In this document: positions 2,594 to 55,355 of the stretch, piece after piece
Layout: each line of letters opens with the position of its first letter
Position numbering within the stretch: position 1 is the first letter of the stretch
Source: a virus
Virus record (IMG/VR): IMGVR_UViG_3300033402_000312
Strand: one strand, 5' to 3'
Length of the DNA stretch: 64,000 nt
The notes under the pieces: model-generated
Databases searched by the model: none
What the model saw: only the letters and a program-made list of their open reading frames with translations
What the model was told of the DNA's origin: nothing
Program-made: the position numbers and the translations under genes

Positions 2594-3772
2594 CTATACG
2601 TTTGCTATAAAGTAGGCGAGCGTTATTTTCGCTGTTCCGTCGCCCTGAGAAACGGGCGGCGAGCCAGCAGGACCGCTCACAGATACAACATCCACTGTAA
2701 ATCCGGTACCCACTCCAGGCTGCGGACCGTCTGCGGTTGTGGGGTCATCTTCTAAACTATCCACTAATGTGGTCGTGCCATAGTAAGTTCCTGGGTTGGT
2801 GATTTCGTAGGTTAACACCGCCCCGCTGTCGTCCACCGTCAGGACTCGGTACGTTGCGTCCATGCTGCTGTTGTTTTGGCGTATTGTGCCGGTGTCCCCG
2901 ACGGCGTACGCAGTGCCCCCACGAGGTCCGTATATTCCCCCGAAAAACTGGCCCAAAATCGTGGAGACTATCGGGGCTTTTGTGTATGTCGTAGTGCTGT
3001 TGGCATATACGACTATCTGCTGGTTGTCAGCCTCGGTCTCGGGCAACCCCTGCACGCCCGACGGACCGCTGGTGACAGGAGGAAGGGCGCTAAACCCCAG
3101 AATGTCGGCCGTAGATGTTAGGGGACTCGAAAAAGACAAAAGATTTGCTCCGAAGCCCGCGTCGTACGGAAAGGAGCCTGCATAGCCGACGTAAAGGAGC
3201 GCGTTTGCGTACGGCGTCGTGTTGAACTTGTAGGAAAGCACGCTAAGCGCCAAGGGCACTATGAATCTTCCAACGCCGGGGACGGGGATGGGGAATGCCA
3301 CCGAGACTACGCTGAGGGAGTTCAACTGGGCCGCTGACAAATCCAATTCTACTGTGTGGATAAGGCTGGAAAGCGGCATGCCGGAACTCTGCACGTTACC
3401 GTCCCCATCCGTAGTGACTATGTTGCCGCCTTCGGCCGTTTTGATGCTGCCGCTCGAATCGGTTACGGCCACGAGCGAGCCGTTGGTGCTCGTTCCCAAT
3501 ACCGTAATTGAACCCGAAGAGGTGACTATACCTGTCGCAATGCCCGCGCCTGAGACTGAAGCTACTGTTCCGCTAGCGGGACTTGCCCAGCCGAGGAATA
3601 CGTTGTTCCCGTTGATCACGGCGGCGTCGAGAAGCTGCCCCTGGATCGGCGCTATGTTCGGGAGCAGGAACGTCAGGTTGCCCCCGATGCCCTGCGCCTG
3701 GATCGTTGCCTGCCCGGCGACCGACCCCGAGAACGTGAGCGTACTGACTACCGGGTTGCCTGCGTCCGCCAT
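2594..3772 (-). CDS. tail fiber-like virion protein (392 aa)
   Basis: Gly/Ser/Thr/Val/Asn-rich beta-type composition typical of phage fibers (GSITVLGTSTNGSLVAVTDSSGSIKTAEGGNIVTTDGDGNV). Adjacent to a second fiber-like gene. Confidence 0.55.
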   Translation of the reverse strand: MADAGNPVVSTLTFSGSVAGQATIQAQGIGGNLTFLLPNIAPIQGQLLDAAVINGNNVFLGWASPASGTVASVSGAGIATGIVTSSGSITVLGTSTNGSLVAVTDSSGSIKTAEGGNIVTTDGDGNVQSSGMPLSSLIHTVELDLSAAQLNSLSVVSVAFPIPVPGVGRFIVPLALSVLSYKFNTTPYANALLYVGYAGSFPYDAGFGANLLSFSSPLTSTADILGFSALPPVTSGPSGVQGLPETEADNQQIVVYANSTTTYTKAPIVSTILGQFFGGIYGPRGGTAYAVGDTGTIRQNNSSMDATYRVLTVDDSGAVLTYEITNPGTYYGTTTLVDSLEDDPTTADGPQPGVGTGFTVDVVSVSGPAGSPPVSQGDGTAKITLAYFIANV

Positions 3773-4399: not shown

Positions 4400-5122
4400 T
4401 TAGTGCCGGTCGTAACGGACTAGCTCAAAGCGGCCATCGTGATGCTCGACAATGGCGGTTAGGGACACCCAATCGCCGCAATTGAAATAGCCTTTGTCTT
4501 CGTGGAGCGCCGCAGTATGGATGTGCCCGCAGATGACGCCGTCCGCATCCGCGCTCTTGGCAAGCTCAAGCAGGGACTCCTCGAAATCCCCTATGTAGGC
4601 GACAGCTTCCTTGACCTGCTTTTTGATGACTGCTGAGAATGAGAGAAACTTCATGCCGAACAGCTTGCGAAGCCAATTTACTGAGGTATTGAAGGCGACG
4701 AGCCAGTCGTAAAGGACTGATCCGACCTTGGCGAGCCATTTGGCGTGCCCCATCACCGGGTCGAAGATGTCGCCGTGGATGACGAGGAGCTTGCGACCAA
4801 GCAGCCCCGTGAAGACGCGCTTGTCCACGATCTCGATGTTGCCGATCTCGAAGCCCTCGAACAGGCGAAGCTCCGGGTCGTGGTTGCCCGGCAGGATCAC
4901 GAACTTGGAGCCTTTGCGGGCTTTGCGGAGAATCTTCTGGACGACCGTGCTCGCCTCAACAGGCCAAGAATGCGAGCGCCTGACCTCCCACAGGCCGAGG
5001 AAATCGCCGACGATGTACCAGGTGTCGGCTTCGTTGTCGCGCAGGAAGTTGAGCAGGGCCGAATAGTTGCATGCCCCGCCGAGATGCAGGTCGCTGATGA
5101 AGATGGTTCGGTAGTGCGCCAT
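4400..5122 (-). CDS. calcineurin-like metallophosphoesterase, LpxH (UDP-2,3-diacylglucosamine pyrophosphatase) family-like
   Basis: N-terminus MAHYRTIFISDLHLGG...WYIVGDFLGLW...ILPGNHDPE...VIHGDIFD...ICGHIHTA reproduces the ordered metal-binding motifs of LpxH-type phosphoesterases (DxH, GD, GNHD, GH, GHxH). Confidence 0.7.
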   Translation of the reverse strand: MAHYRTIFISDLHLGGACNYSALLNFLRDNEADTWYIVGDFLGLWEVRRSHSWPVEASTVVQKILRKARKGSKFVILPGNHDPELRLFEGFEIGNIEIVDKRVFTGLLGRKLLVIHGDIFDPVMGHAKWLAKVGSVLYDWLVAFNTSVNWLRKLFGMKFLSFSAVIKKQVKEAVAYIGDFEESLLELAKSADADGVICGHIHTAALHEDKGYFNCGDWVSLTAIVEHHDGRFELVRYDRH

Positions 5123-5182
5123 TACCTATTAGATGGAAATCTGTGTTACGGGAGTGTTAATTTACCGGAGCTTGCAGTCGAG

Positions 5183-5977
5183 TCATGTCAACTTCTCATA
5201 GTTTTGGATGAACGACCCGATCAGCGCAGGGATCACGGGCGTGCAGGCATTGCCTAGCGCTTTAAGTCGGTATGACCAATCGGGAATCCCATAAACTGCT
5301 CTAACGCCTCGGGCGTAGGCATCAGATTCTGGTTCTTCTGGATCACCGCTCGAACGAGCATTTCCTGCGCCCAGTTCATACTCCCAGTAATGCCAGTCTT
5401 GGCACGCTTGCGCCATCTTCCTTTCGAGTTCTGGTGAAAGCGTCCATCCTCTGGCCACGTCTTCTCCAAGGCATTTAATGCCGTGGGGGTCGTGATGCGC
5501 GAGGATGAAAACGCGTTCCCGTTGGAATGGCGCACCGAAAGCTTCAGCACCCACCACGGACGACCAGCAGGAGTAGCCTGCTCCTTCCAAGTCAGAGACG
5601 ACCCGGTCAGCGCCTTTAGTCTTGAGATTAGGAACGTTCTCAACAAGGACCCAACGAGGCTGTAGTTCCCGGACGACTCTTGCGTACTCGAACCAGAGAC
5701 CGGAGCGGTTGTGGAGTCCTCGCTCTTTGCCCCCGGCTGCAACGCTGAGGTCTTGGCAGGGAAAGCCGCCGCTGATGAGACCGACTGGCTGGAGGTTGTG
5801 CTTGCCGACGTCTCTGACGTCGGAGAATCTTGAGACATTAGGCCACCTAGCCTCTAATACTCGGTTGCAGAAATTGTCAATTTCCACCTGCCAGATGGTC
5901 TCAAAATTAGCCCACGAGAGTCCCAGGTCGATTCCGCCTATTCCAGTGAACAAACTGCCGTGGGTCAGACTCCCCAT
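5183..5977 (-). CDS. dcm: DNA (cytosine-5)-methyltransferase
   Basis: Motif I LFTGIGGIDLG (FxGxGG), motif IV GGFPCQDLSVAG (PCQ), motif VI ENVPNL (ENV), and QRERVF (QxRxR), all in canonical order. Confidence 0.9.
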   Translation of the reverse strand: MGSLTHGSLFTGIGGIDLGLSWANFETIWQVEIDNFCNRVLEARWPNVSRFSDVRDVGKHNLQPVGLISGGFPCQDLSVAAGGKERGLHNRSGLWFEYARVVRELQPRWVLVENVPNLKTKGADRVVSDLEGAGYSCWSSVVGAEAFGAPFQRERVFILAHHDPHGIKCLGEDVARGWTLSPELERKMAQACQDWHYWEYELGAGNARSSGDPEEPESDAYARGVRAVYGIPDWSYRLKALGNACTPVIPALIGSFIQNYEKLT

Positions 5978-5990: not shown

Positions 5991-6027
5991 GCAAAAGAAA
6001 GGGGCTGCCCTGTTACAGGACAGCCCC
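5991..6027 (-). terminator. intrinsic terminator after the Mrr_N-like gene (coordinates approximate)
   Basis: On the minus strand, a near-perfect 11-12 bp GC-rich hairpin GGGGCTGTCCTG-taa-CAGGGCAGCCCC is followed by TTTCTTTTGC. Confidence 0.55.
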
Positions 6028-8802: not shown

Positions 8803-10932
8803 TTACCTTCTCCCTCTCCTATTCCAAGGGCTTACGGGGTTAGTTCCCATGTAAGAAGCTGCATGTTGTTGGGATTTCTTGAGCTTTTCCATGATCTTCA
8901 GGACTTGCATGGGGATGCCGTCCATGCCGAGCAGCGGGGCCGGGGGGCGCATCATCTGCGCCTGCATGAGCAGGCTGAGACCGGAGGGGTCCATCATCTG
9001 CCCCTGCTCCAACAGCCAGCGCTGGGCAAGGAAGGCGCACAGCATGGCAGCGTCCGCCATGTCGTCATGAGCGCCCTTTTCCTGCGGCGCTGCGACGCGA
9101 ATGCGGTACTTCGCCATAACCTCAAGCTCGACGAGCTTCAGTTCCTGGATGAACTTCGGCACGTAAGGGAAGCGGCAGCGCTCGGACTCGATGTAGCCGC
9201 GCAGGGCGTATGCCATCTGCGAGTTGATCGCGGGCGTCAGGTTGACAAGCTCGAAGTTCCTGATCTTCTTCAGTTCAAGTGTCTGTACAAGCTGCTGGCC
9301 TCCATGCTGGTCGGTCGCCCCCTTGAAGCATGGAAGAATCTTGTTCATCTCCTCCATCCAGTCGAGGATGTCTTCCAGCGGAAGAATCTGATAACCCTCG
9401 TATTTGTTTTGCCCGATCCCCACCTTTACGCCCGGCCATTCGCCCTTCTCGCCGACCATCATCCGGTCGATATAGTCGTAGATCAGCTTGATCGTGCCGT
9501 GCGGACCGCCTGGCTCAAGGTGCCCAATGGCGAGCGCGGATGCGTCGTTCGTCATGCCGAGGTCGAAGCCCCAGAAATAGTTCCTGCCGATCTGCATCGG
9601 AGTGAAGCGCTGGATGTTGATGCGTGCGCTTCCCTCGACAGGCAACCCCCTCTCGTCCCACTTGCAGTCCGTGCATTTCTTCACCGATGCCTCAGTCACA
9701 TAGGATTCGGACGACTCTAGGAACTTGCCGCCATATTCGGCCTTGAATGTAAGCGGGTTCTTCTTGTACTCAGATTTGAGGAACTTCGCCAGCAGCTTCG
9801 GGTTCATCTCGGCGCTTGGGCAATTAAGCGTGAAGATGCCGGAAACGATAGGTCCCTCTTCCAACGCCATCTTGTGAAGCTCGTACATCTTGCCGATCTT
9901 CTTGAGCGGGCTGCTGATGCTCAGAATCATGGAGTCCTGAATGCCCTCGTTCTCGTCCTCGAACTCAAGACCCGGCTCGGTTTCCTCGAAACGCACATTG
10001 GAGTCCGTGCCGAAATCCGTGCCCATCGGCTCTTCCGGCAAGGTGCCAGCCGCGACGAGCTTCTCGTGGTGGAAGTCTGCCGTGGACGGCGTAGCCGCCG
10101 CGTACATGTCGTCCGACGTCGATCCTTTCGCGGAGCGGAAGTGTGCAAACTCGTCGAGCGCAAGGAAGATGGATGAAGGCGAACGCACGGCGTTCGTGGT
10201 GCATGGAAGGCAGCTTACTGTGACCGTGGGCGTGGACTCCTGCTTCTCGCGGTCGGCGAGCGTGACGAATGCCAAGTCCTTTGCATTAGTATCCTTCAGG
10301 TACGGGGCAAAAAAGCTTTCAGCCTTGAGCACCTGCTCGCGCAGCTTCTTGAACAGGCGGTGAGCGCCGTTCTCATCCTGCGCAAGAAACGTGAAGTCAA
10401 TGATGGAGCCGGGAAACAAACCGAAGTGCTCCTGCGGAGACCTGATATTTAATAGCAAGTAAAGCTTGTAGCAGGCCACAGCCGCCACTAGCTCCGACTT
10501 GCCTCCTCTCCGCCCGGCGAAAACGCACGCCTCATTGAAGCCCGCCTCGCCGGGGATGCCGCCCATGTTCGGGATGTCGCGCCAGTCGGAAACGTTGCAG
10601 CGCTGCTCGTTAAACGTAATGCGGAGGTACTCCTCCTCGGTCACGTCCGCGTGCAGTTTCTTCTCGCGGAACACGTCGTACATCGGCACCATGCCCCATC
10701 CGGGGATGCGCGACGTCCATTCTGGCTTGTAGTCGAAGGGAACGCCATAGATCGCCTTGACAATAACGCGCTGCACCGGACGCAGCACGATGCCTATGCC
10801 GCCCGGTCCCTCGATAAATTCGATGGCGTTTTGCAGCTTGCTCGGGTCTTCGATGCTCGCGGCAATGGCTGCGCCGAAGACGGAATCCTTGGCGGCCTTG
10901 CCGAAACGCTTGCTTCTGCGGATGTTAGCCAT
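8803..10932 (-). CDS. terL: terminase large subunit (709 aa)
   Basis: Walker A-like FAGRRGGKSELVAAVACYKL, then FLALDEFAHF (Walker B/DE), then a nuclease-like C-terminal half with acidic residues. The size and position are typical for TerL. Confidence 0.85.
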   Translation of the reverse strand: MANIRRSKRFGKAAKDSVFGAAIAASIEDPSKLQNAIEFIEGPGGIGIVLRPVQRVIVKAIYGVPFDYKPEWTSRIPGWGMVPMYDVFREKKLHADVTEEEYLRITFNEQRCNVSDWRDIPNMGGIPGEAGFNEACVFAGRRGGKSELVAAVACYKLYLLLNIRSPQEHFGLFPGSIIDFTFLAQDENGAHRLFKKLREQVLKAESFFAPYLKDTNAKDLAFVTLADREKQESTPTVTVSCLPCTTNAVRSPSSIFLALDEFAHFRSAKGSTSDDMYAAATPSTADFHHEKLVAAGTLPEEPMGTDFGTDSNVRFEETEPGLEFEDENEGIQDSMILSISSPLKKIGKMYELHKMALEEGPIVSGIFTLNCPSAEMNPKLLAKFLKSEYKKNPLTFKAEYGGKFLESSESYVTEASVKKCTDCKWDERGLPVEGSARINIQRFTPMQIGRNYFWGFDLGMTNDASALAIGHLEPGGPHGTIKLIYDYIDRMMVGEKGEWPGVKVGIGQNKYEGYQILPLEDILDWMEEMNKILPCFKGATDQHGGQQLVQTLELKKIRNFELVNLTPAINSQMAYALRGYIESERCRFPYVPKFIQELKLVELEVMAKYRIRVAAPQEKGAHDDMADAAMLCAFLAQRWLLEQGQMMDPSGLSLLMQAQMMRPPAPLLGMDGIPMQVLKIMEKLKKSQQHAASYMGTNPVSPWNRRGRR

Positions 10933-12000: not shown

Positions 12001-12822
12001 TTATGCGACACCTGCGACTGTTGCTTTTGCCCGCACGATTCCGGTGAGGGGCTGTTTCATAATTCGTTCAGCGATTTTGAACTTTCTGGGCAACGCAATG
12101 ACACAGTCTTTGTAAAGTAGTGCAGTAGCATTACGAGCGCGGTCGCCACAAAGTAAAACATCATGTATGGAACCATGCGGTCCCACTTGCCCATAAATGT
12201 TGTTATCAGCGAGAAAATTCACGAATGTTGTGCATGACGCGAGCGATCCGCAAAGTTCCATGACTGCTGTGTTTTTAGATGTGGCTGGATAGCCGTCCCC
12301 GTCAACCATGCCCCGCCAAAAATGCCTACTGTTAACAACCTCGGCGGAGGGGGCGGCTGTAAAAGACTTGCGTTCAGTTATACCTAGTTCCCTGAGGCGG
12401 CGATACAGCTTATCGGAAAGAAGTTGAACTGTATTACATCCAGCCCTTGTTGGAGAAATTGGATACGAAGACTTCAAGAAATCCAAAAATAATCTAAGGT
12501 GCTTTTTATCCTTCTTCGCCAATTTCAGCCTTATTCTGGCCGCTGCGTTATGTTTGCGGTTTCCTTCAACAGTTCCGTCCGCTAGCAAAAATCCGATCCA
12601 ATAAAGCGCCTCTTCGCCTAGAGGCGCATCAAATGCGGTTTCATTGACGGAATACTTCCTGAAAGCTTCTGAGCGACTTCTGACAGCACCATCACCTTCT
12701 ACCCTGACGATCTTCAGAATTGTGGCGCGGCAAAGACGGTAAGCCTTTTGCAAATCAACGGAGCTTTCTCCAGATTTGTACCGTGTTAAAATTTCCTTGC
12801 GAGTTTTATCCATGATCTTCAT
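12001..12822 (-). CDS. LAGLIDADG-family homing endonuclease (double-motif, ~273 aa)
   Basis: Two LAGLIDADG-type motifs, LYWIGFLLADGTVEG and FWRGMVDGDGYPA, preceded by an N-terminal HTH-like segment. The ATG at 12822 lies 17 nt after the stop of the 1591-aa gene. Confidence 0.8.
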   Translation of the reverse strand: MKIMDKTRKEILTRYKSGESSVDLQKAYRLCRATILKIVRVEGDGAVRSRSEAFRKYSVNETAFDAPLGEEALYWIGFLLADGTVEGNRKHNAAARIRLKLAKKDKKHLRLFLDFLKSSYPISPTRAGCNTVQLLSDKLYRRLRELGITERKSFTAAPSAEVVNSRHFWRGMVDGDGYPATSKNTAVMELCGSLASCTTFVNFLADNNIYGQVGPHGSIHDVLLCGDRARNATALLYKDCVIALPRKFKIAERIMKQPLTGIVRAKATVAGVA

Positions 12823-12838
12823 AAATCTCAGATACCAC

Positions 12839-15800
12839 TTACTCACGAGTGCCACAAACAAAACGGTATTTCATGATGAGGCTGTCAGTATCAATAGTCT
12901 CTGGGCGAACAAAAACCTCATAGACGAACCCACCGTTTGGGTCATCGTTCCAAACGGCTGCTTGCGCCCAACTAGAATTCAGAGCGCTCTTAATGTCCCC
13001 GTCGTTGAGTTTTTTCATCAACCACGCAACACGACCGCCTTTGCCGGTGACTCCTAATGGTTGTGTCTGTTGACCCTGCTCAATAATGTCAAGCTGAATT
13101 TCCCCTACGCCTGGAACTTTATCAAGCAATGGACGTTGTGTAATTTTGAAACTTGCTACGAAAGTTGCGGCTATTTCCCCGCATACCTTTTTCAAAAACT
13201 CGGAGAATTGCTTAACTTCGTCTCCCGCAGCGACTTTCTGAGAGGCGATGGCCATCGCGGCTCCCGGTATTCCCTCATACTGACCATAAAATTCATCAGT
13301 AAACATATACCCTCTAATATCGTTCTCCTTGCGGAGAGGCGCTCCTTCGAGAACCTCGGGCTTGCCGTCGCGCCCGATGCCCATTCCGCCCGCTGGCTTA
13401 GTGGACGAGTAGTCCGCCGCAGCCATCGCGAGAGGCTCGACTTCGCCTACGTCGGCAGGCAACTGGATCATCTCGATCACGTTGGTGTCGAGTGCCTCGT
13501 CAAGCATGCCCTCAAGCTCGTGGCTGTCGTCTCCGACGATCTCCGGGTTGCCTGCGCCGCTCATCGGCTGGTTGGTTGCGTTCGGGTAATCCACGATCTC
13601 ATGCTGGATTTCCGGGTAGAATTCCTTCACCACCTGTCCGGGGAAGAAGAAATTGAAGCCCGCTTCCTTTTCGACCTGCTCTTCTGTTTTTGCCATACCG
13701 TCTCCTGCTGTCTTGCCCGCGTCAATTTGCGCCATCGCATCCAAGAACCGTTTCTCTCCGCGACCGCTCTTCAAGGCGGCAATCGCGTCCCGAGCGTTCT
13801 GACCAAACATTTTCAGATTCTCGCGACCTTGGTTTCCGCGCAAAGGATTTTCGCGGGGCAAGTTAACGCCCGCGCCGCCGATAGGCTTGCCCTTATAATA
13901 GAGCATGTAGCCATCGGCATTTGCTTGGTAGGTTAAATCTTCCGCCGCTTTTTTAACGCCCACATTCACGACTTTGGAGAAATCTTTCTTTGTGCCGCGC
14001 CTGTAGCTTTCCCAGCAATCGGATGTGTCTGGGGCGTCGCACTTGATCTTCTTGAAGAGCGTCCAACTGCCTTTTGGCTCCCGGGCCCCCTCGGAGTCTT
14101 GCGTATCCTCGGTCACAAGCTCTATTTTGATTTTCCGATTCGTCGGATGAAAGAAAAACATGTACAATGAACCGTCCACGTTTTCTTGCTTCCAGCCGTT
14201 CGCCCTCAGCAGTTTCTTCATCTGCGTGATGAGCTTGCTATGCCCCCAGCCCTTCTGAGCGGCTTTCTTCACGCCCGTGCCCCCTGCCGTGTAGGCTTTC
14301 TCGTCCCAGCGCAGGCCGTACTGCGCGAGTATCTGCTCGGACTCTTCCCTGTCCGGGCCGCCCATGACGTTGACCATCGGGTCGGGCATCTTCATCGTCT
14401 GGACGGCGATCTGAAGCTGGTGCCATTCCGGCGTGCCCTTCTGCGGCATGCGCTTCACAGAGGTGACATGGATGGCTGCGTTCTTCAGCGAGGAAGAGAT
14501 GCCGACGCTTTTCATGAAGGCGCTGTCTTGGATGTCGGTCTCCCTGCGTTCGTAGTCCATGTTCGCCTTGGCAAGCTCGACCCAGTTCGGCTCTTCCCAC
14601 GGCTCGTTTCCCTCGAACCCGGATTCGCGCTTAAGCTCTTCGTATTGCTTCCTGAAAGTCTTCTTCAGTTGCTCGGCAAGCTGCTCCGGCGTCAAGCCCT
14701 CCTTGATGGCGCGGCGCACCATGTCCTGCTTGAGTTCGAACGTCTCCCTGCTCTCGTTGTCGAGCCACATGTCAAGCTGCCCGGTCTCCCAGTTCGACCA
14801 GTGCTCCTCGCTAATGCCTTGCGGGTCGTCGGCGGTTTTGCCCGAGCTTGCTGATGTTTTCATCGAGATGCATTCGTTGCACAGCCCACGGCCTTCCTCT
14901 AGCTCCGTGCCGGGCAGAAGCTCCTCGCCGCACTTGTAGCAAAACCGCTCAGGATGCTCCGATTCCCCGGATTGCTGCTGCAATTCCTCAAACTTTTTGC
15001 CGCGAGTACCCGCCCCCGCTTGGTCGTAGAATACGTAGGTGTCGCTTTCCGGCGCGTAATCCATCTGCAAGCCCAAGGCTTCCGCAGTGTCCATCATGAA
15101 CGTCGTAAGCTGCTGCTCGAAGGAATCCATGTAGCCTTGCGGGTTCCTCTTCTTCAAGTCCGCGAAGATGCCGTTGAGCCTGTCCGTGACCGCCTTGATC
15201 ACGTCGGTCTTGTTCTTCTCGCTGACGCGGCTCTCGATGGACAGCGCCCTCTTGCCGAAGGAGGCCTTCTTGGAGGCGCTCACGATCCTCTCGGTCTCCC
15301 AGTCGTCGAAACGCATCGCAGGCTTGCCATCCACTTGCCCGCGCACAGCCCAAGTGAAGTCTTGCCCGTTGTGCTCCGGGTCAATCGTCGGGTACTTCTT
15401 TTGAGCCTCGGCGAGGTTCGGGAAGACCTCGCGCCCCTTGCTGCGGGTCACGACCTCGACGGGCGAGTTCACATAGCTCCTCCATTCGACCCACGCTGCT
15501 GTCTTTGTCCTTACGGCAGTTTTGAGGTGCCAGCGCATCTGCTTGTGCTTGAGCAAGCCTTCCCTGAGGAGGTCCTGGAGCACAGGATAAGCCATGTTGG
15601 TGTACTTGCCGCCGCCGAGCGCTTTTTCGATTTCGTCCGTCGTCTTCGGGCCGTGGCCCAGGATTTCCAGCACAAGGTTGCGCTTCGCAGGATCGGCTGC
15701 CGCTGTCTTCTTCACGGGCGGTTTTTCGGGCGGAATCGGCGTTTCGCTCACGGCAGTATGGGAGTTCCACCCGCACGAGCAGGCGTAGGAGTCCTCGGGC

Positions 15801-17614
15801 TTGCCCTTCGATGTCATTTTCCCGCACCACGGGCACCTCATAGTCCAGTTGCTCGCGAACTTGCTGAACTTAGCGGATGCGCTCTTGATGAAGGCATGCG
15901 CTTCCTTGAAGGAGGAGAACGAAGCCTCGCGCCGGGTGCCGCGAAAGACGAACCCAACGTGGAACGATGGGCCCTCTAAGTCCGTGCCGCCGAAAGCCCC
16001 GGTGCCCATGCCCGATGTGACTTTGCCTTGGTTTTCGCCGCCGATTGGCTCAGCGCCCTGCTTGACTTCGGAGGCATCCCCGATCTCGCGCCATATCCCG
16101 CCGCTTTGATCGACCCAAACGTTTTCTGCTTGGTTGTAGTCGAACTCTTCGCTGTTTTCGCTGGCAGCGGCAAGCTCTCCAATGTCGTGGACTTGGACGC
16201 GCTTGCCTTGGCGTTCAAGGACACGGAGGTTGGCGGTCTTTGTTGACTCAGCGCCCTTTTTCTCCTTCGCGATCTCGGCCTCGACGACGGCTTGGGCGTC
16301 GGAAGTGGTGAGACCTTCCTCTTCCAGTTTCCTGACCCTCTCCGCGTAGTCGGGACTCGGGTCGTTCGGGTACTGTTGACCGCCGGTCCCGATGCCCAGC
16401 TTGTCCCGAATATCGACGAATTTCTGCTGGGGATTGATGGGTTTAAGGCTCGTCAGGAGCTTCACCAATTGATGGTAGTTTTCGTTTTCCAATTGGTCGA
16501 TGACGGCTTGGGAGATGCGCTTGAAGCCAGCAGTCTTCATCGCCGCAAGCATCGCCGCCTGGTAGCGTGCCTCCAGTTGCGGGTCCTCCATGATCTGGCC
16601 GCCGCTTTCGATGCCGAGCCTGTCCCAGACATCGTTCTCCAGCAGCATGAGCCTCTCGGCTTGGGAGACCGCCGTCTTGGAGCCGACGTTGATGATGATC
16701 TGGGTGCCTGGCTTCGCGGAGACCTCGGTTGCGCCAGCCGGGGCCTCGCCGTTGAGCTTGGCTTCCGTCTGCTCCACGGCACGCTCGACTTGCTCCTGCT
16801 TGACCTCGATGGGCTTGTGGACTTCCATTTCCGCCTGCGTCTCGATTGCCTCGCGGATCGCGTTCACGTTCTGGCGCTCCGGGGACTTGATTCCGCCGTC
16901 GGCCACAGGGACGCCGTTTTCCTCGTGCGTGTTCGCATGAAGCTCGTCGTTGGAGGCCCCCGCTTCCGGCCCGTCGATGTGGGCTTCGCCGTACGCGTTC
17001 TCTATCGGCTCCATCATCTTCGAAAGCTCTTGGTCGCTGTGGATCAGTTCGGCCGCCAGCTTGTAGGCTTCCGGGCTGTAGCCGTCGTCGGCGAACTTGA
17101 TCGTCACGCCTGTTTTCGTCGAGGCCGCCTTAAGCTTCGCCTCGTATGGCTGCTCTTTCGCGGGCAGCCCCAACGCTTCCAGGTGCTTGCACTTGCGGTG
17201 GCCGATCCAGCCGGGGCAGTTGCAGCCCCAATAGCGCCACTTCTTGTTCTGCGCGATGGTGTAAAGCCTGCCGGAAGACTCGGACTTGATGTAGAAGCGG
17301 TTCGTCCATTGCTTGTTGTCAGGCAGCAGTTGCCCCTCAAATCGTTGTCCGTTGATAACTATGGCTTGCGGGTTGTACTCGGGGTCGTCCGCAGGCTGCG
17401 GGGCTTTGCCCTCGGGTCGCGGCGCTTTCTTCTCGGATTGCTGGGACGGGACGGCGATGTTGAGGGGCTTCATGCCTGCCTCTTCGCGCATCTCGTTGAG
17501 GGCGTCGATCTCTTCCTGCTCGACCGGGTGCCCTTCGGTGAGCTTCCAAAGCAGCGTCTTCGTGAAGACGTTGACTGCGTTGGTTATGTCCGCGATTTTA
17601 TTCTGCTGGTTCAT
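12839..17614 (-). CDS. giant virion-module protein (1591 aa) with N-terminal SWIM-type zinc finger
   Basis: ATG preceded by AAGGGAG. SWIM CxCxnCxH: WGCNCPGWIGHRKCKHLEAL. Additional zinc ribbon CPWCGKMTSKGKPEDSYACSCG and a KYCYKCGEE...CNEC pair. Acidic overall. Confidence 0.7.
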   Translation of the reverse strand: MNQQNKIADITNAVNVFTKTLLWKLTEGHPVEQEEIDALNEMREEAGMKPLNIAVPSQQSEKKAPRPEGKAPQPADDPEYNPQAIVINGQRFEGQLLPDNKQWTNRFYIKSESSGRLYTIAQNKKWRYWGCNCPGWIGHRKCKHLEALGLPAKEQPYEAKLKAASTKTGVTIKFADDGYSPEAYKLAAELIHSDQELSKMMEPIENAYGEAHIDGPEAGASNDELHANTHEENGVPVADGGIKSPERQNVNAIREAIETQAEMEVHKPIEVKQEQVERAVEQTEAKLNGEAPAGATEVSAKPGTQIIINVGSKTAVSQAERLMLLENDVWDRLGIESGGQIMEDPQLEARYQAAMLAAMKTAGFKRISQAVIDQLENENYHQLVKLLTSLKPINPQQKFVDIRDKLGIGTGGQQYPNDPSPDYAERVRKLEEEGLTTSDAQAVVEAEIAKEKKGAESTKTANLRVLERQGKRVQVHDIGELAAASENSEEFDYNQAENVWVDQSGGIWREIGDASEVKQGAEPIGGENQGKVTSGMGTGAFGGTDLEGPSFHVGFVFRGTRREASFSSFKEAHAFIKSASAKFSKFASNWTMRCPWCGKMTSKGKPEDSYACSCGWNSHTAVSETPIPPEKPPVKKTAAADPAKRNLVLEILGHGPKTTDEIEKALGGGKYTNMAYPVLQDLLREGLLKHKQMRWHLKTAVRTKTAAWVEWRSYVNSPVEVVTRSKGREVFPNLAEAQKKYPTIDPEHNGQDFTWAVRGQVDGKPAMRFDDWETERIVSASKKASFGKRALSIESRVSEKNKTDVIKAVTDRLNGIFADLKKRNPQGYMDSFEQQLTTFMMDTAEALGLQMDYAPESDTYVFYDQAGAGTRGKKFEELQQQSGESEHPERFCYKCGEELLPGTELEEGRGLCNECISMKTSASSGKTADDPQGISEEHWSNWETGQLDMWLDNESRETFELKQDMVRRAIKEGLTPEQLAEQLKKTFRKQYEELKRESGFEGNEPWEEPNWVELAKANMDYERRETDIQDSAFMKSVGISSSLKNAAIHVTSVKRMPQKGTPEWHQLQIAVQTMKMPDPMVNVMGGPDREESEQILAQYGLRWDEKAYTAGGTGVKKAAQKGWGHSKLITQMKKLLRANGWKQENVDGSLYMFFFHPTNRKIKIELVTEDTQDSEGAREPKGSWTLFKKIKCDAPDTSDCWESYRRGTKKDFSKVVNVGVKKAAEDLTYQANADGYMLYYKGKPIGGAGVNLPRENPLRGNQGRENLKMFGQNARDAIAALKSGRGEKRFLDAMAQIDAGKTAGDGMAKTEEQVEKEAGFNFFFPGQVVKEFYPEIQHEIVDYPNATNQPMSGAGNPEIVGDDSHELEGMLDEALDTNVIEMIQLPADVGEVEPLAMAAADYSSTKPAGGMGIGRDGKPEVLEGAPLRKENDIRGYMFTDEFYGQYEGIPGAAMAIASQKVAAGDEVKQFSEFLKKVCGEIAATFVASFKITQRPLLDKVPGVGEIQLDIIEQGQQTQPLGVTGKGGRVAWLMKKLNDGDIKSALNSSWAQAAVWNDDPNGGFVYEVFVRPETIDTDSLIMKYRFVCGTRE

Positions 17615-17628: not shown

Positions 17629-20600
17629 TTACTTTTCTTCTTCGTCTTCCACGAGGACGATGTCAGCCAAATCTCCGGCCCCAAAATCGAACTCTACCGA
17701 CTCGGACTGATCCTCACCGCACGCCGTCTTGTCTTTGCTGGCAAAATGCTCCGGGTTCACCGTGTCTTCCGCTGCGGGTTCGCCCGCGATTGCCGCCTTG
17801 TCGAAATCGACTCCCGCATCCGCTTCAGCGAGGTCTCCCTCGACGCCGCCGTCATGCTTCGGCCCGACGATCTGCTTGACGGCGGAGTTCTTTCGCCCGG
17901 CCTGCTCCGCTGACTCGGTCTGCGTCGCCATCGGCTCGCCCGCGACCCCGGCCTTGTCGTAGTCAAGCCCGGACTTCGCCTCGCCCATGTCGCCGCTGAT
18001 GTCATCCGCAACTTTTTCGACATCATTTGGCTGACTGTCCTGGACGCGAACAGATAAATGGGGCAAATCCCCCATCATTGCGCGAGCCAGATGGTCTGCT
18101 TCTTCATTGGTATCAAAAGAGTCAAAAACAAATTCTTTGCCACTGTTGTGGACTGGGTTCCTTACTATGACTTGGAATCTTTTTCCATGAACATCATGAG
18201 AAGCTTTGCGCCTGCCCGCGTCGAGGACGGAGACTGTCGGCTGCGGGATGTCCTTGTCCACGGCGTTCGGGCTGGTGCTCTCGGACTTCGCCTGCGCTAT
18301 GTCGCCCTCGATCCCGTGGTCGTGCTTTTCGCCGACCATCTGCTTGACGCCCGTGTTCTGGTTCGCGCTCTTGGTGTTGCTCGGCGTCGGCCCTGAGGTG
18401 TCCCTCTTCTCGACGACCTTCTTGTTCTCCGGCGCTCCCTTGCCGTCGTTCTCCATGTTGTACGGGTTGTCGGCGGTGTCGGCTTTCTTCGCGTTCGCGG
18501 GCTGCGCTTTTCCGTCGTTCGGCGGCGCATCCGCACGACGCTCATTTCTGATCGCCTCCTCCATATCCTCTACAGAGGGGATCGCTTCTATCGCGCTCGT
18601 CTTGTCCTTCCCCTGGGCATGCTCGGGCTTGCTTTCCATCCGGTCGTCAAGCCCCGCCGTCCCGTATTCGCGGACGGAACGCAGCGCCTTTCCCGCCTCC
18701 TCGGTAGTCATGGGCCTGAGCACGCTGCCAGCCGCATCGGCTTTCTTCTGCCCCTGCGGGGGAGCATCCGGGCCGCTGGTGTCCTCAACGTCCGCGTCGG
18801 TCTTGGGCTGGATCACGCCCTCGCCGCCCCTCCAGTTGGCGGGGTTGTCGGCAGTGTCGCTTCTCTTTCTCCTCAGCGGCTTCTTCGGTGCCTTCTTTGC
18901 CTGCTGGGCGATCATTTTCTCGATCATCGCCATCAGCGGCTTGTAAGTCATGAACGTTTTTCCGCCGAGACTGATGAGATAGCCGTTGGAACTGCTTTGA
19001 TCCTCAAAGAGACCGTAGACCGGGTGAACCAGGTCGCCGCTCTCGTCCTCTCTGAATCCTGCACGCTCAAGGGCGTTGTGGATTCTCGCCATCGAGAACT
19101 GCGTTGGAAGAGAGTTGTCATCTCCCTCTTCTTCGTCGTCTTCTTCGTCAACCAGGAATCCCTCGCTGTTCGTCCGTGGCGACCATCCCTTTCCCTTCGG
19201 CGCTGCTTGTTTGATGTCCGCGCCAGCCTCGGGCCTCGGTCGGTCTGTGCCCTTGGAGCGCTCGGCGTCGGTGTCCTTGTGGCACTCGACGGTGCCGCTC
19301 GGCCCGGTCTCCTCGGAGGTCGGGTCCGAAGCAGCGTCGATGTCGTGCTCGTTGTCCGCCGTGTCGGCGACTTTGGCAGAGGCTTCTTTCTCCTGCGACT
19401 CGCCGGTCTCACCGCTAACGCGGGGGAAACTGCGCCGCAGATTCTTATCTCTAGCAAGCGCAAATGGATGAAATTCTCCATCCGCGTCAATGATGCCATC
19501 CTTGTTTTTGGATATGATGCGACCGCAGCCCACGCAATCTATCGGAGCATTTACCGCCTGGCAAGACGGGTTGGTGCAATGAGACGCCGTGCCGTGCGGG
19601 TACCTCCTGTTGCATTCTGGGCAACGACCACTGGCAGCACCACAATGCGGGCACTTAAGCCGAGGCTCCGCTGTCTTGGCGCTCGCCTCATGCTGATAGC
19701 TGCGGATGCGCTTGAAAAGCGCCGCCGCTTCCTGCTTTTCCTGAGGCTCAAGACCGGCCGCGCTGAGCAGATTATCCCAGTTGCGCCTCAGGTCGGACAC
19801 GTCGCCGATCATGTCGTTCATGCCGATGTCGCCCGACTGCTGCGCCATGACGAAGCCGTCGCTGGTGATCGCCATGTCGGTGATTGACGGGTTGGTGTAG
19901 GTCTCGCCGAGGATGTACCCCACGATTGCCGCCATCTTGCCGGACATGTCGGAGAAGCGGCCGGGGAACAGCTTCTTCTTCAGGCCCTCGGACGCCGCTG
20001 CCGTCTTGGACGCCATGCACTCATGCTGGATTTCATCGCTTTCGGCTGAGCAGCAAGGGTCGTCCTCGTCAACGTCGAAGCCGCACTCGCGGCACTTGCG
20101 CTGCCTGACCCACCTGCCGCTCTCCTCGTCCCAGCGTGCGTTCGCGTTCGGGCAGCCGTGCTCGTGGCAGGGCACGCCGTTGATCGCCGCCATCTCGCAC
20201 TGGTCGCAGCTTACGCGGCGGCCGGAGTCCTCGATCTCGCCGGAGACTTCGTCCACGAAGTCGGCGAACTTGCTGTCGATGCGCCAGGCGGACTGCTTGG
20301 TGGCCTCGTTTTCGAGACCGGACTCTTCCCTTTCCGCATCGCCTTCGGAGACCTCCTTTTTGTCCTCCGGCTCGGGGCTGCGGAACGCCTCCGGCAGGTC
20401 TCCCACGTCGCGCTTGTTTGGGCGTGCGCTGCTGCGCGGCTCCGTGCTCTGGCTCTCGCCTTCCGTGTTGGACGGGGCGGAGTTGCTCGGGTCGGTGTCA
20501 ACGTCCACCAGCGGAGCCGGACCCATGTCCTCGGTGATCGCGTCCCAGATGGAGTCGATGTCAAGCTCGACCGCCGTCTTCGGGCGGAACCTGTCGAGCA

Positions 20601-23600
20601 GGGACTCCTTCTCGGCGCGTGCCTGCTTGCCCCTTGTCGAAATGGCTTCGTAGCCGCCATCGCTGTCCACGATCTTAGCCAGCTTGTTAGCAACGTATGC
20701 TGGCGAGAAAGACTTGGACTTCGCGGAGGCGACGTGAACCATGTGGTCGTCGCCGATGTACAGGTCGGACTCGCCGAAGCTTCTCGCGACTTCGCTCAGC
20801 CTGTCCCCCAGACCGCCTTCTTTGAGGGCCTCACGATCCCAGAACCCCACGCCGTGGCCGCAGCGGGTCAGCCAGAAGTCGTGCCCTGCCATGGCCTGAC
20901 CTGACCATTCGCCGGGGCGATCATAGCCTGGGCGCTGGTAGGCTTCCTGAAGCAGAGGCGCGGCTTTCTTCTGGAAATCCGCGCAATCCTTGCGAATCTG
21001 CTGCATGCCCTCGTCGGAGATGTCCTCGATGTCGTAGTTCCTGTCCAGCGGCTCGCCGCCGCTCGGATCGGAACCGTCGTTGGTTGACCAGAGAGCGGCT
21101 TCGATGTAGCCGCGCTCAAAATCGTTCAGGATGTCGCGGTTCACTGCACCGCGCTTGAACTTCAGCGGAATCTCGACGCTGCCCCACTTCTCCTCCGCCT
21201 TCTTGGAGAACGAGTTGTCGCCAGCCGCAGACTTGTCGAGCGGGTACTTGCCGTATCCGCCAGCCTTGATCTCCTTGGCATGGTCGGCAACGGCGCTTGG
21301 ACTCTGGGAATCCGGCTGTGTGGTGGCGGTGATGTACGCCGCAACCTCCTTCGGAGGCGCGTTGCGCTTGTCTACAAAGCCGCCGCTGTACATCTTGGCG
21401 TAGTGGTCGGTGAGATTCGCGTTGATCGGGGGTTCTATCTGCTTGCCACGATTGTCGAAGCCCTCCTTTTCGGGGTGTGGCGTCTTCACGATCTTCGCAG
21501 TCTTGCCCTCTTCTTCCTTGCGGCGGGGATCGCTGCTTGCGGCATTCTTATCCGAAGCCAAAAATCCCCCTTGGTCGGCATATCCCTTAATCCTGTCGAT
21601 GAGACCGTCGGTCCGGTGGGCGGGCATATTCGGATCGTAGCCGGGATTCTCCTCGTTGTACTTGTCGCGGCACTCGTTGGAGCAGAAGTTCGCTCCCGGC
21701 TCTACAGTCGCCTCGCACTGCTTGCAGTGCCCCCAGTGGTCGGCTTTCTTACCTTTGCTGCCGACCTTGGCTTCCTCCTCCTTGCGGCGAGGCACTCCGG
21801 TCTCGTCGATGGCGATGCCGATTGGGCCGCCGGTCGATTCGTCTTCCCTGCCCTCGTCGCCTTGGACGCTCTCCTTCATCGCCGGGGCGGAGGCTTCCTG
21901 CTCGGCGTGGGCTTCGGTCCCCGGGCCGACGTTCGTGAACGGGGTCTCGTGCGGGGCGCAGGCTTCCTTCGCGCTGCCCGTCATCTGCCGCTCGTCAAAG
22001 GCCGCAGCCTCGAAATCGCGTGCCGCCTGTTTCCCGCAGTCCTCGCCGTCGCAGTAAACCGTCTTGGTCTTCGGGTAGTAGTAAACCCGTTCCCCGGCAT
22101 TGATGTCCCGCCCGCACTTCTTGCAGCGGGAAGGCTGCTTGGCTTCCAGCCAGCGGGGGTCGCCGCTGTAGGCTTTCTTCTCGGCGGAGCCTTTGTGCGA
22201 CTCCATGTTCCTCAAGCCTTCTTTTGCCGCATCTTCGGACTTGAAGCTTTCCAGAATCTTGCCCGTCTCGTGCTGCTTGATGCACCATTCGGCCTTCTCG
22301 CCCTTCGAGTTGCGGTGACCGGGGCAATGCGACACGTAGGCGACCTTCTTGAGCGACGCCGCCTTGCAGGTGCAGTTCTCGCAGGAGCACTCGCCGCCAG
22401 CCTTCTTGCAGCCGGGGCACACGCCGTCCGCGCCGATGTGGGCGACCTTCTCGGAGTCAGCCTTGCTCTTGCTGTAGCCGCACTTCTTGTTCGTGCAGGC
22501 TTCCCTCTTGATGGGCTGCCCGGCGACAAACACCTTCTCGACCTCCGTGTCGCTCCCGCACTCGGGGCACTTCTGTCCCTTTTCCTTCTTAGCCTTTTTG
22601 GCGGAGGACTCTTTCTTGTCCTTCTCCTTGGAGCCGAACGGCGGGGCCTGCTTGCCGCCGAAAGCCTCGGAGGCTTCGTGCGCCACGGTAGGCTCGTCGC
22701 CTTCGATGGCGCGGAGCCACTCAGCGGGGACTTGGTCTCGCGGGACTTCTTGGCAGCCCTTCAGGAACTCTTCGCTGATGGCTGTGGTTTGGACAGAGCT
22801 AACACTCCCGGCGATAGCTGTCCCGCGCCCTTCGTACTGGTCTTCGCCGAAGTTCTTTTGGTAATAAGACAACGAATCCGGGTCGATAGCCAAATAGTCG
22901 CCGTTGGACTCTTGGAAAAACCTTAACGGCTCGCCGTTTGCTTCCTTCGACGAAGCCTCGCGGGGCACGCCCGGCTTCGCTTCGGGGGCCTTGAACCCGC
23001 CCTCGCCCTGTGCGCCATCGGCGCTGGGGAGCAGGGACTGCTCAAGCGCCTGGTTCAGGGAGTCGAACACGTCGAGTTCCTGGGGGTCGAGCGTCTGCTT
23101 GGCGATCTCGTCGGCGGTCTTCCTGTTCAGTAGCACCGTCGCCCTCTTCCAGCCAGCCGACTTCTCAAGCTGCGGGAACTGCTTCAGCGGGTTCTCGGAC
23201 AGGAACGGGTAAGACAGCTTCGGCGTGATGTCGGTGACGTCCACCTTGGTCGTGTCCACGTTGGTCATCAGCGCGTTGAAGGCGCTGGACACTGCGGGGT
23301 TGTAGTACGCCGAGAAGACCAGGTGGCGCAGGTCGTTCTTAAGCTGCTCGGCGTTGTCGCTGAAGTGGAAGCAGACGTACTCGCGGGAGTTCATCCAGTT
23401 CGGGGCGAACACCACTAGGGAGGCTTCCTCGCCCGTCTTCGCATCGGTGAAAAGCTCCTTCTTGATCGTGTCGAAATCCGCTTGGCTGTACTCGTCGAAT
23501 TCGCCAGCCCCGATTTTCTTCTCGATGAGGTCGGCGACCTCCTCGCCTCCGGTGCCGAACACGCGGACGAGAGCGCCGTGGAGCAGCGCCGTGGGGAAGT

Positions 23601-23847
23601 TCTGCCTGTCGTTGCACACCTTGGCGGGGACGACCATGATGCGCCCGAGGGAGATGTTCTGGCGAAAGCCGTGGCAGAAGACCTCGAACGACTGCACGTT
23701 GCCGGACGAGCGGGCCTCCTTCTCGCCAGCCTGGACGGCTTCGACGACTTTTTGCAGCAGTTCCTCGCTTACCGTGAATATCTGGAAGCTCTTGCCTGCG
23801 ACGCTGTTGCCGCCGACGCCAGCCTTCTTGGTGATTTCCTTTGCCAT
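17629..23847 (-). CDS. giant acidic zinc-ribbon-rich protein (2072 aa)
   Basis: ATG preceded by AAAGGGGAA. At least 8 CxxC...CxxC ribbons (e.g. CPECGSDTEV...CTNKKCGY, CKKCGRDINAGERVYYYPKTKTVYCDGEDCG, KCPHCGAASGRCPECNRRYPHGTASHCTNPSCQ). N-terminal GNSVAGKS fits [AG]x4GK[ST]. Conserved-looking GHDFWLTRCGHGVGFWD. Confidence 0.7.
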   Translation of the reverse strand: MAKEITKKAGVGGNSVAGKSFQIFTVSEELLQKVVEAVQAGEKEARSSGNVQSFEVFCHGFRQNISLGRIMVVPAKVCNDRQNFPTALLHGALVRVFGTGGEEVADLIEKKIGAGEFDEYSQADFDTIKKELFTDAKTGEEASLVVFAPNWMNSREYVCFHFSDNAEQLKNDLRHLVFSAYYNPAVSSAFNALMTNVDTTKVDVTDITPKLSYPFLSENPLKQFPQLEKSAGWKRATVLLNRKTADEIAKQTLDPQELDVFDSLNQALEQSLLPSADGAQGEGGFKAPEAKPGVPREASSKEANGEPLRFFQESNGDYLAIDPDSLSYYQKNFGEDQYEGRGTAIAGSVSSVQTTAISEEFLKGCQEVPRDQVPAEWLRAIEGDEPTVAHEASEAFGGKQAPPFGSKEKDKKESSAKKAKKEKGQKCPECGSDTEVEKVFVAGQPIKREACTNKKCGYSKSKADSEKVAHIGADGVCPGCKKAGGECSCENCTCKAASLKKVAYVSHCPGHRNSKGEKAEWCIKQHETGKILESFKSEDAAKEGLRNMESHKGSAEKKAYSGDPRWLEAKQPSRCKKCGRDINAGERVYYYPKTKTVYCDGEDCGKQAARDFEAAAFDERQMTGSAKEACAPHETPFTNVGPGTEAHAEQEASAPAMKESVQGDEGREDESTGGPIGIAIDETGVPRRKEEEAKVGSKGKKADHWGHCKQCEATVEPGANFCSNECRDKYNEENPGYDPNMPAHRTDGLIDRIKGYADQGGFLASDKNAASSDPRRKEEEGKTAKIVKTPHPEKEGFDNRGKQIEPPINANLTDHYAKMYSGGFVDKRNAPPKEVAAYITATTQPDSQSPSAVADHAKEIKAGGYGKYPLDKSAAGDNSFSKKAEEKWGSVEIPLKFKRGAVNRDILNDFERGYIEAALWSTNDGSDPSGGEPLDRNYDIEDISDEGMQQIRKDCADFQKKAAPLLQEAYQRPGYDRPGEWSGQAMAGHDFWLTRCGHGVGFWDREALKEGGLGDRLSEVARSFGESDLYIGDDHMVHVASAKSKSFSPAYVANKLAKIVDSDGGYEAISTRGKQARAEKESLLDRFRPKTAVELDIDSIWDAITEDMGPAPLVDVDTDPSNSAPSNTEGESQSTEPRSSARPNKRDVGDLPEAFRSPEPEDKKEVSEGDAEREESGLENEATKQSAWRIDSKFADFVDEVSGEIEDSGRRVSCDQCEMAAINGVPCHEHGCPNANARWDEESGRWVRQRKCRECGFDVDEDDPCCSAESDEIQHECMASKTAAASEGLKKKLFPGRFSDMSGKMAAIVGYILGETYTNPSITDMAITSDGFVMAQQSGDIGMNDMIGDVSDLRRNWDNLLSAAGLEPQEKQEAAALFKRIRSYQHEASAKTAEPRLKCPHCGAASGRCPECNRRYPHGTASHCTNPSCQAVNAPIDCVGCGRIISKNKDGIIDADGEFHPFALARDKNLRRSFPRVSGETGESQEKEASAKVADTADNEHDIDAASDPTSEETGPSGTVECHKDTDAERSKGTDRPRPEAGADIKQAAPKGKGWSPRTNSEGFLVDEEDDEEEGDDNSLPTQFSMARIHNALERAGFREDESGDLVHPVYGLFEDQSSSNGYLISLGGKTFMTYKPLMAMIEKMIAQQAKKAPKKPLRRKRSDTADNPANWRGGEGVIQPKTDADVEDTSGPDAPPQGQKKADAAGSVLRPMTTEEAGKALRSVREYGTAGLDDRMESKPEHAQGKDKTSAIEAIPSVEDMEEAIRNERRADAPPNDGKAQPANAKKADTADNPYNMENDGKGAPENKKVVEKRDTSGPTPSNTKSANQNTGVKQMVGEKHDHGIEGDIAQAKSESTSPNAVDKDIPQPTVSVLDAGRRKASHDVHGKRFQVIVRNPVHNSGKEFVFDSFDTNEEADHLARAMMGDLPHLSVRVQDSQPNDVEKVADDISGDMGEAKSGLDYDKAGVAGEPMATQTESAEQAGRKNSAVKQIVGPKHDGGVEGDLAEADAGVDFDKAAIAGEPAAEDTVNPEHFASKDKTACGEDQSESVEFDFGAGDLADIVLVEDEEEK

Positions 23848-44927: not shown

Positions 44928-44968
44928 GATAGTTTTTCTCCTAAGAAGTTGTCTTAGTCGATTCCCCC

Positions 44969-55212: not shown

Positions 55213-55355
55213 CCTAATAGAAGAACGGGAAAGTCCGAGAAAACAGAGAATATAAAGCACTGAAAACGCAGGAGATCGCTACTGGACATTTTTTGATGCC
55301 CGGCTGTATACTATTGGCGTACGAACGGCATCAAATAAGAAGGAGGAAGGAACCC

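Follow-up and report, generated by a model that had tools for sequence, protein, structure and literature searches.

Here, we describe a phage gene in a stretch of 64,000 nucleotides (the window) from the IMG/VR virus record IMGVR_UViG_3300033402_000312. The original prediction for positions 4400 to 5122 was a phosphoesterase with the chemistry of LpxH, the UDP-2,3-diacylglucosamine pyrophosphatase of lipid A synthesis. The gene is real and lies on the minus strand, which the prediction had left out, but its product very probably belongs to PlcP, a sister family of LpxH whose members act on phospholipids. The open reading frame (ORF) and the elements of its product are as follows:

4400..5122, minus strand: the plcP-like gene, an ATG-to-stop ORF of 240 amino acids for an LpxH-like binuclear metallophosphoesterase, placed here in the PlcP family
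5084..5092 (D11 to H13), minus strand: motif I, FISD11-L-H13-LGG, with metal ligands D11 and H13, aligned with D8 and H10 of Escherichia coli LpxH
5003..5008, minus strand: motif II, G39-D40, with the bridging Asp; invariant
4877..4888, minus strand: motif III, G79-N80-H81-D82, the canonical GNHD, read from the DNA
4553..4771, minus strand: the H116-G-D118 motif, then a helical insertion of roughly 70 residues (about 118-190) where LpxH carries its lid domain
4517..4528, minus strand: the motif G199-H200-I-H202, metal ligands; invariant, aligned with H195 and H197 of E. coli LpxH
4463..4477, minus strand: G216-D-W-V-S220, the family motif N[CT]GD[WF]VES with its conserved Glu deleted (one codon, in frame)

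The ORF is a real gene and not a chance reading frame, because its product has 5722 homologues at E<=1e-3, six public contigs carry an identical protein, and the ratio of non-synonymous to synonymous substitution (dN/dS) is 0.09, at a dS of 0.80, between the window gene and an orthologue that is 86% identical. Over four relatives compared, dN/dS ranges from 0.07 to 0.19. Judged from these substitution patterns, the gene is under strong purifying selection and functional in the phage lineage.

The protein matches the Pfam family Metallophos (E=2.9e-13), and the metallophosphoesterase motifs are all found in the order originally described. Motif I, motif II and the GHIH motif are invariant in 120 homologues. 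The loss of metal-binding residues in an alignment, which the original prediction had named as grounds for giving up its reading, is not what we see: all seven ligands (D11, H13, D40, N80, H116, H200 and H202) align with D8, H10, D41, N79, H114, H195 and H197 of E. coli LpxH. This metal site is common to the whole superfamily, so the match to the LpxH ligands does not discriminate. At motif III the GNHD of the window protein stands against GNRD in LpxH, whose Arg80 aligns with His81 and replaces the usual His of the metallophosphoesterase motif GNH(D/E); the LpxH form of the motif is absent. H81 is found without exception (100%) in three sets: the phage clade that contains the window protein, the other viral copies and 79 bacterial PlcP-type proteins. 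Within the insertion, the AlphaFold model places helices at residues 118-154 and 164-190; the predicted local distance difference test (pLDDT) score of this block is 56-75 and reaches 91 at the C-terminus of the second helix. In LpxH, the helical lid lies between the HGD and GHxH motifs and forms the acyl-chain chamber. The lid-like insertion contains the family-invariant residues Y138, R152 and K167 and the near-invariant N145 and K171.

LpxH itself is represented by two NCBIfam equivalog models, TIGR01854 and NF003743, with cut-offs of 190.35 and 134 bits. The window protein misses both, at 38.1 and 42.4 bits respectively, whereas E. coli K-12 LpxH, used as a control, reaches 388.9 and 364.3 bits. 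Scores like that of the query, between 30 and 60 bits, were obtained for the SAR11 and Bradyrhizobium proteins at the plcP position, for Rhizobium and Methylomonas proteins and for four phage copies. The best match among solved structures is nevertheless LpxH (PDB 5b49, 5wly and 9cd1), and the original preference for LpxH over the lambda-type phosphatase or Mre11/SbcD stands in the sense that LpxH is the nearest solved and curated relative. The two proteins share a fold, seven metal ligands in equal order and an insertion at the lid position; they differ in the Arg80 of LpxH against His81, in most lid residues and over the whole sequence, where identity is 24% (38.9 bits by BLASTP). The proposed LpxH chemistry, on the other hand, does not hold up, as the window protein misses both equivalog models, the motif is GNHD and not GNRD, and the protein groups with PlcP. 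PlcP cuts a phospholipid phosphodiester and not a nucleotide diphosphate, so that chemistry is not expected for the window protein; LpxH acts on a UDP-sugar pyrophosphate, splitting UDP-2,3-diacylglucosamine into lipid X and UMP, and the substrate here would be the phosphodiester of a phospholipid.

PlcP is a manganese-dependent, LpxH-like metallophosphoesterase (PMC8231724) that cleaves the phosphodiester of phosphatidylethanolamine (PE), phosphatidylglycerol (PG) and phosphatidylcholine (PC) (PMC4796936, PMC8231724). It breaks PG and PE down to diacylglycerol (DAG) and is required for lipid remodelling (PMC8231724, PMC4796936, PMC9239053): under phosphorus starvation PlcP strips the phospho-headgroup and Agt glycosylates the resulting diacylglycerol (PMC4796936, PMC8528852, PMC8231724, PMC9239053). 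The plcP-agt gene arrangement has been published for SAR11 HTCC7211 and others (PMC4796936, PMC8231724, PMC9239053), and in the published arrangement types 4 and 6 plcP occurs without a synthase for a non-phosphorus lipid. LpxH is the outgroup in PlcP phylogeny (PMC9239053). The known PlcPs, which are intracellular enzymes, include S. meliloti SMc00171, Phaeobacter MED193_17359 (EAQ46983), SAR11 PB7211_983, P. aeruginosa PA3219 and the PlcP of Methylosinus OB3b. Identity among characterised PlcPs is just 46-47% (PMC8528852), and the threshold used in the literature for PlcP homologues is E<1e-40 (PMC4796936, PMC9239053).

Over its full length, the window protein shares 44-53% identity with the product of the "LpxH-annotated" gene that lies directly upstream of agt in SAR11 and Bradyrhizobium. 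A Pelagibacteraceae protein at the plcP position (L075), with agt immediately downstream, has 44% identity (E=2e-75), a Rhizobium PlcP-type protein has 49% (E=4e-75), and the Bradyrhizobium, Xanthobacteraceae and Roseibium loci have 47-53%. At about 1e-75, the E-values to the SAR11 and Rhizobium proteins go far beyond the literature threshold. We also compared signature positions, defined as the 65 positions that are each conserved in at least 95% of the 79 bacterial PlcP-type proteins. The window protein retains 55 of the 65, and E. coli LpxH retains 21. Among the retained residues are S10, G15, W53, Q62, K63, R66, R69, H81, D121 and W129, as well as Y138, N145, K167, K171, C198, Y212, N214, D217, S220 and E226.

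The homologues form two layers: a group of ~240-amino-acid proteins with 53-87% identity to the window protein, and thousands of bacterial proteins of 262-275 amino acids with about 50%, all of which are named "UDP-2,3-diacylglucosamine diphosphatase". For the bacterial loci, one genome per species was scanned, the best 80 were kept and their neighbours were identified by a tblastn-anchored analysis. These 80 come mostly from Alphaproteobacteria (Bradyrhizobium, Xanthobacteraceae, Roseibium, Mesorhizobium, Rhizobium, Methylobacterium and Pelagibacteraceae), with some from Beta- and Gammaproteobacteria and Verrucomicrobiota. An agt-like glycosyltransferase of the GT4 type (Pfam Glyco_transf_4 and Glycos_transf_1) lies within 5 kb in 58 of them, and in 40 it is immediately downstream on the same strand, including 5/5 Pelagibacteraceae and Bradyrhizobium. 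This synteny matches the published plcP-agt operon. When E. coli LpxH was used to root a neighbour-joining tree, 34 short proteins, the window protein among them, formed a clade (the phage clade) inside the PlcP-type radiation; the bootstraps do not settle whether this clade is sister to, or nested in, the sampled bacterial PlcPs.

Sequence similarity, signature positions and sub-threshold scores on the LpxH models together are the basis for our placement in PlcP. The window protein resembles PlcP in its canonical GNHD, in the family positions that it retains and in its predicted helical insertion. It differs in length, bacterial PlcPs having about 265-275 amino acids and the window protein 240, without the C-terminal tail; and, unlike bacterial plcP, the window gene is phage-encoded and has neither a Pho box nor agt, btaAB or another glycosyltransferase as a partner.

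Relatives of the gene are widespread in phages. Several members of the ~240-amino-acid group lie on contigs of 101-447 kb, and the contigs of close relatives measure 447, 325, 247 and 215 kb. The 325-kb and 247-kb contexts are phage-like, with dense small unannotated ORFs, DNA methyltransferases and a DNA ligase. A protein identical to that of the window is also reported on a contig of 894,233 bp; this would be exceptionally large for a single phage genome and could also be a mis-assembly or a host contig.

In IMG/VR, 391 contigs encode a plcP relative. Among the best 80 of these loci, 40 have an agt-like GT4 gene and 12 have a GT2 glycosyltransferase gene directly upstream that overlaps the plcP start; a glycosyltransferase lies next to plcP in 52/80. 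In about two thirds of the bacterial cases plcP is in an operon with a synthase for a non-phosphorus lipid (agt, btaAB or another glycosyltransferase). A PstS-like gene is nearby in seven of the 80, all of which also have one of the glycosyltransferases. The combination of GT2, plcP and PstS occurs in L108, L109, L110 and L158, and plcP is accompanied by an agt-like gene and PstS in L119, L155 and L156. By their gene content, such loci look like complete phosphorus-starvation lipid-remodelling cassettes. T4-type genes (the gp44 clamp loader, the gp45 clamp, NrdA/NrdB and SegE) surround many of the IMG/VR loci, which are therefore genuine phages, and some of the cassettes lie among T4-type replication genes.

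Among cultured phages, a tblastn search finds relatives in Pelagibacter phage Mosig (41% identity) and Synechococcus phage S-SRM01 (29%), with coverage of 98-99%. Both proteins (QOI69083.1 and QPX48289.1) are annotated as 'putative UDP-2,3-diacylglucosamine hydrolase', and the Mosig gene adjoins a phosphate ABC transporter gene. They have window-like motifs and similarly sub-threshold scores on the LpxH models (44-60 and 38-50 bits). Mosig and S-SRM01 are T4-like Kyanoviridae of marine and freshwater hosts, whereas the window belongs to a different, high-GC lineage. The original prediction knew of no described LpxH-family representative in a phage. This is half right: our search found no paper that recognises phage plcP or describes plcP-glycosyltransferase-pstS cassettes, but there are the two deposits labelled LpxH, the 391 IMG/VR contigs and an lpxH entry in the gene table of a Lake Baikal virome (PMC9611531).

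The window comes from a tailed phage with a GC content of about 58% and very large ORFs, most of its ORFs having no Pfam match. When positions 1-8000 were searched at the DNA level against cultured phages, the sole match was a 58-nt patch inside the methyltransferase gene that precedes the plcP-like gene. This gene and the element upstream of it are:

5183..5977, minus strand: C5 cytosine DNA methyltransferase, 264 amino acids (Pfam DNA_methylase, E=1e-40; phrog_363, E=4e-63)
6001..6027, minus strand: upstream of the methyltransferase gene, a GC-rich hairpin followed by a T-run; the 12-bp stem includes 9 GC pairs, and the tail is T-rich

The methyltransferase stop codon is 60 nt upstream of the plcP-like start codon, and the two genes are probably in one transcription unit. 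The same gene order is found in L086, the relative that is 86% identical and the closest in IMG/VR. From its structure, the hairpin at 6001..6027 is likely to be the terminator of the preceding unit, which would set the 5' boundary of the methyltransferase-plcP unit. A sigma-70 promoter scan of the 60-nt gap revealed none that was convincing. A hairpin after the plcP-like stop codon is no stabler than shuffles (z=-1.5), so it does not define the 3' end of the unit. The direct repeat TAACAC-N5-TAACAC (5143..5159, minus strand) was considered as a response-regulator site and rejected, as it occurs at chance frequency and its first half is not conserved in L086. The repeat lies 20-36 nt upstream of the plcP-like start and is unique in the window; its second half, the sequence GTAAATT and the sequence around the ribosome-binding site are conserved in L086. 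Public gene calls on the identical contigs give, next to the plcP-like gene, a 194-amino-acid product with no Pfam match, whose size and position fit the ORF at 5254..5838 (minus strand). The 264-amino-acid methyltransferase ORF overlaps this one in another frame and has apparently been missed by public annotation.

Elsewhere in the window, the following features were identified:

2594..3772, minus strand: Gly/Ser/Thr-rich protein of 392 amino acids, two genes downstream of plcP
8803..10932: large terminase
12001..12861, minus strand: LAGLIDADG homing endonuclease, adjoining the 1591-amino-acid ORF
12839..17614, 17629..23847, 33862..38844 and 49609..55260, all minus strand: four very long ORFs of 1591, 2072, 1660 and 1883 amino acids
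42891..43874, minus strand: HNH homing endonuclease (phrog_655, E=6e-18), immediately downstream from the gene for the major head protein
43968..44996: major head protein (phrog_2522, E=4e-44)
48673..49596: head maturation protease
61225..63999, minus strand: tail sheath, 924 amino acids so far (phrog_2839, E=2e-22; Pfam Phage_sheath_1C)

The tail sheath ORF, already longer than is usual for a sheath protein, runs to the end of the window and is probably cut at its N-terminus. In the four very long ORFs no Pfam domain is significant, and the matches to PHROGs, all of unknown function, are short and internal, such as phrog_1915 at residues 903-1039 of the 2072-amino-acid protein; the strand that carries them has a strongly negative AT skew. 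The 392-amino-acid protein weakly resembles a head-decoration PHROG (E=2e-5) and the sheath domain Gp18 domain I (E=2e-4), and is not conserved at the equivalent position in L086. The window contains no tRNA genes.

If the protein acts as its family suggests, it would be a cytoplasmic, metal-dependent phospholipase C, the metal probably being Mn2+, that works at the cytoplasmic face of the host inner membrane and cuts the glycerol-phosphate bond of PE, PG and PC. The diacylglycerol would stay in the membrane, and the released phospho-headgroups would be turned by host phosphatases into phosphate for phage nucleotide and DNA synthesis. We think it reasonably probable that the phage PlcP hydrolyses host phospholipids in the infected cell and so supplies phosphorus. 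This reading would place the gene among the phosphorus-stress auxiliary metabolic genes, a class that includes phage pstS, phoA and phoH, which like plcP are host-derived phosphate-starvation genes carried by lytic-type tailed phages (cyanophages and pelagiphages); plcP would act on membrane lipid, whereas that class acts on external phosphate. No phoH was seen in the 64-kb window. As expected of an auxiliary metabolic gene, it is a host-type gene kept by selection in a genuine phage genome: the window has head, protease, terminase and sheath genes, dN/dS is 0.09, and the closest cellular relatives are bacterial plcP genes at about 50% identity.

The linkage of plcP to pstS and to glycolipid synthases in other phages supports a role in phosphorus economy. 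The clade of the window carries plcP alone; any glycolipid synthesis would thus depend on host enzymes, and we hold the phosphorus role with less confidence here than the placement in PlcP. With relatives on contigs of 247-447 kb, the phosphorus demand per virion would be high. As a rough textbook estimate, a Gram-negative cell has about 2x10^7 phospholipids, which hold about twice the phosphorus of a 4.6-Mb chromosome, a pool that would be worth mining for a phage with relatives of several hundred kb.

A number of observations weigh against the family assignment or the phosphorus role. The link to PlcP runs through orthologues recognised by synteny and taxonomy and not through the characterised PlcPs, and the phage clade of 34 sequences came back in 47 of 100 bootstrap replicates of the neighbour-joining tree, too few to fix the deep branching order. 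The lid region of the AlphaFold model is of low confidence. The window protein lacks the Glu of GDWVES, which 97% of the phage clade and 99% of the bacterial PlcP-type proteins have; the allele without it occurs on six contigs and is therefore not a sequencing error. The window protein alone has L160 in place of a Trp, and the phage clade departs from conserved bacterial PlcP positions at D43G, Q55, N58, D59, E83P and H104F. As for the context, the adjoining genes in the window and its relatives are DNA methyltransferases and not metabolic genes. No agt-like, GT2 or pstS gene is present in the 64-kb window, and none was found in the flanks read for L086-L089, L167 and L168, which reach up to 10 kb from the gene on each side. 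A search for the Pho box (CTGTCAT-N4-CTGTCAT, with up to three mismatches) gave three matches in the window, which is the chance level, and none near 5100-6100; the consensus is that of E. coli and Pseudomonas and may not be that of the host, which makes this a weak test. Finally, phosphorus limitation is an assumption for this phage.

Some of these observations would fit a PlcP-type phospholipase that benefits the phage in a way other than phosphorus supply, which we regard as a less likely alternative. The family assignment would be unchanged, and the plcP of this clade does lack a glycosyltransferase, pstS and a Pho box. The benefits to be considered, which share that modest likelihood among them, are a weakening or remodelling of the inner membrane that helps lysis or virion release, a change of the envelope that blocks superinfection, and the use of DAG as a lipid precursor. 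Reviews have argued that membrane proteins used as phage receptors are altered when PlcP drives lipid renovation (PMC9804370). Against such benefits, the genes that adjoin the plcP-like gene include no identified holin, endolysin or spanin, and the linkage of plcP to pstS and glycolipid synthases in other phages points to phosphorus economy.

It seems improbable that the enzyme instead hydrolyses nucleotide signals, namely cyclic oligonucleotides, gcADPR, ADP-ribose (ADPR) or NAD adducts, and so blunts a defence of the CBASS, Thoeris or Pycsar type, as the original prediction had also proposed. Metallophosphoesterases can evolve new phosphodiester substrates, and DNA methyltransferases, typical counter-restriction genes, adjoin the gene in three divergent relatives; methyltransferases are, however, common throughout large phage genomes, so their adjacency is weak evidence. 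The clade has no glycosyltransferase partner and carries substitutions at PlcP-conserved positions, yet 55 of 65 PlcP positions are kept, including the lid-like N145, R152, K167 and K171. A lipid substrate is suggested by the helical insertion, which stands where LpxH has its acyl-chain lid. A PADLOC scan of the window protein gave no match, and it shows no similarity to known signal-degrading, defence or anti-defence families. Acb1 and Apyc1 share with it only the general idea of a phage phosphodiesterase: Acb1 has a 2H-type phosphodiesterase fold and Apyc1 a metallo-beta-lactamase fold, both unrelated to the fold of the window protein, and we found no link in sequence, profile or context. 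There is a similarly small chance that a PlcP scaffold has been re-tasked to a non-lipid phosphodiester, for example a nucleotide immune signal, an idea that draws on the shed partners, the methyltransferase neighbours, the clade-specific changes and the deleted Glu. Such a re-tasked PlcP, if true, would be a new anti-defence enzyme family.

The two remaining explanations are less plausible still. A true LpxH, altering host lipid A synthesis, would agree with the best solved-structure match and with public labels on close relatives and on six homologue clusters that we checked, but the curated models are missed by about 90-150 bits where the E. coli control passes, GNHD replaces GNRD, E. coli LpxH is merely 24% identical, and the closest cellular relatives are mainly Alphaproteobacteria. 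Alphaproteobacteria, as Metzger and Raetz reportedly described in 2010, produce lipid X with LpxI, and we take the 'LpxH' of this class to be plcP beside agt. A phosphoesterase of DNA metabolism (an SbcD/Mre11-like, PdeM-like or Bxb1 gp47-like nuclease or replication factor) is highly doubtful as well: the methyltransferase neighbours and the precedent of Bxb1 gp47, a calcineurin-like phosphoesterase required for replication (PMC11795197), would suit it, as would weak N-terminal matches to the PHROG 'DNA repair exonuclease' and SbcD-like families (E=3e-5 to 1e-3, residues 3-85 only) and to PdeM, and the SbcD-like matches of a BFVD structure search, all of them remote and with no close viral model among them.

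The preferred reading thus remains a phage PlcP that would draw on host phospholipids, and this has consequences for annotation. The bacterial PlcP-type clusters that we checked (L047, L075, L051, L036, L004 and P0115, which include SAR11 and Methylomonas) are named LpxH in NCBI, UniRef and IMG. This is a systematic annotation error, in which plcP is named LpxH, and it is spreading into lists of viral auxiliary metabolic genes. In a table of the Lake Baikal virome, lpxH (K03269) appears under lipopolysaccharide biosynthesis, beside other metabolic genes (PMC9611531), and in the phosphate islands of the SAR11-related HIMB59 the plcP-agt pair has been read as LpxH and the glycosyltransferase RfaG, genes for lipid A and lipopolysaccharide (LPS) (PMC10734472). 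Viral "lpxH" matches of the PlcP kind most likely stand for phospholipid breakdown under phosphorus stress and not for lipid A synthesis.

For the window gene, the result is a reassignment and not a new mechanism: the gene is a phage member of a known enzyme family, and its kind is already deposited, under the wrong label, in phage genomes. More than this one locus, the broader point may merit follow-up: viral "lpxH" matches of this kind are most likely plcP, and plcP is widespread in phage contigs, often in plcP-agt or pstS-GT2-plcP cassettes. Should the enzyme act as predicted, the phosphorus of host phospholipids, a pool of the same order as that of the chromosome, would become a substrate for phage DNA. 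For phages with very large genomes, that of the window among them, such use of membrane phosphorus would, if true, be most important.

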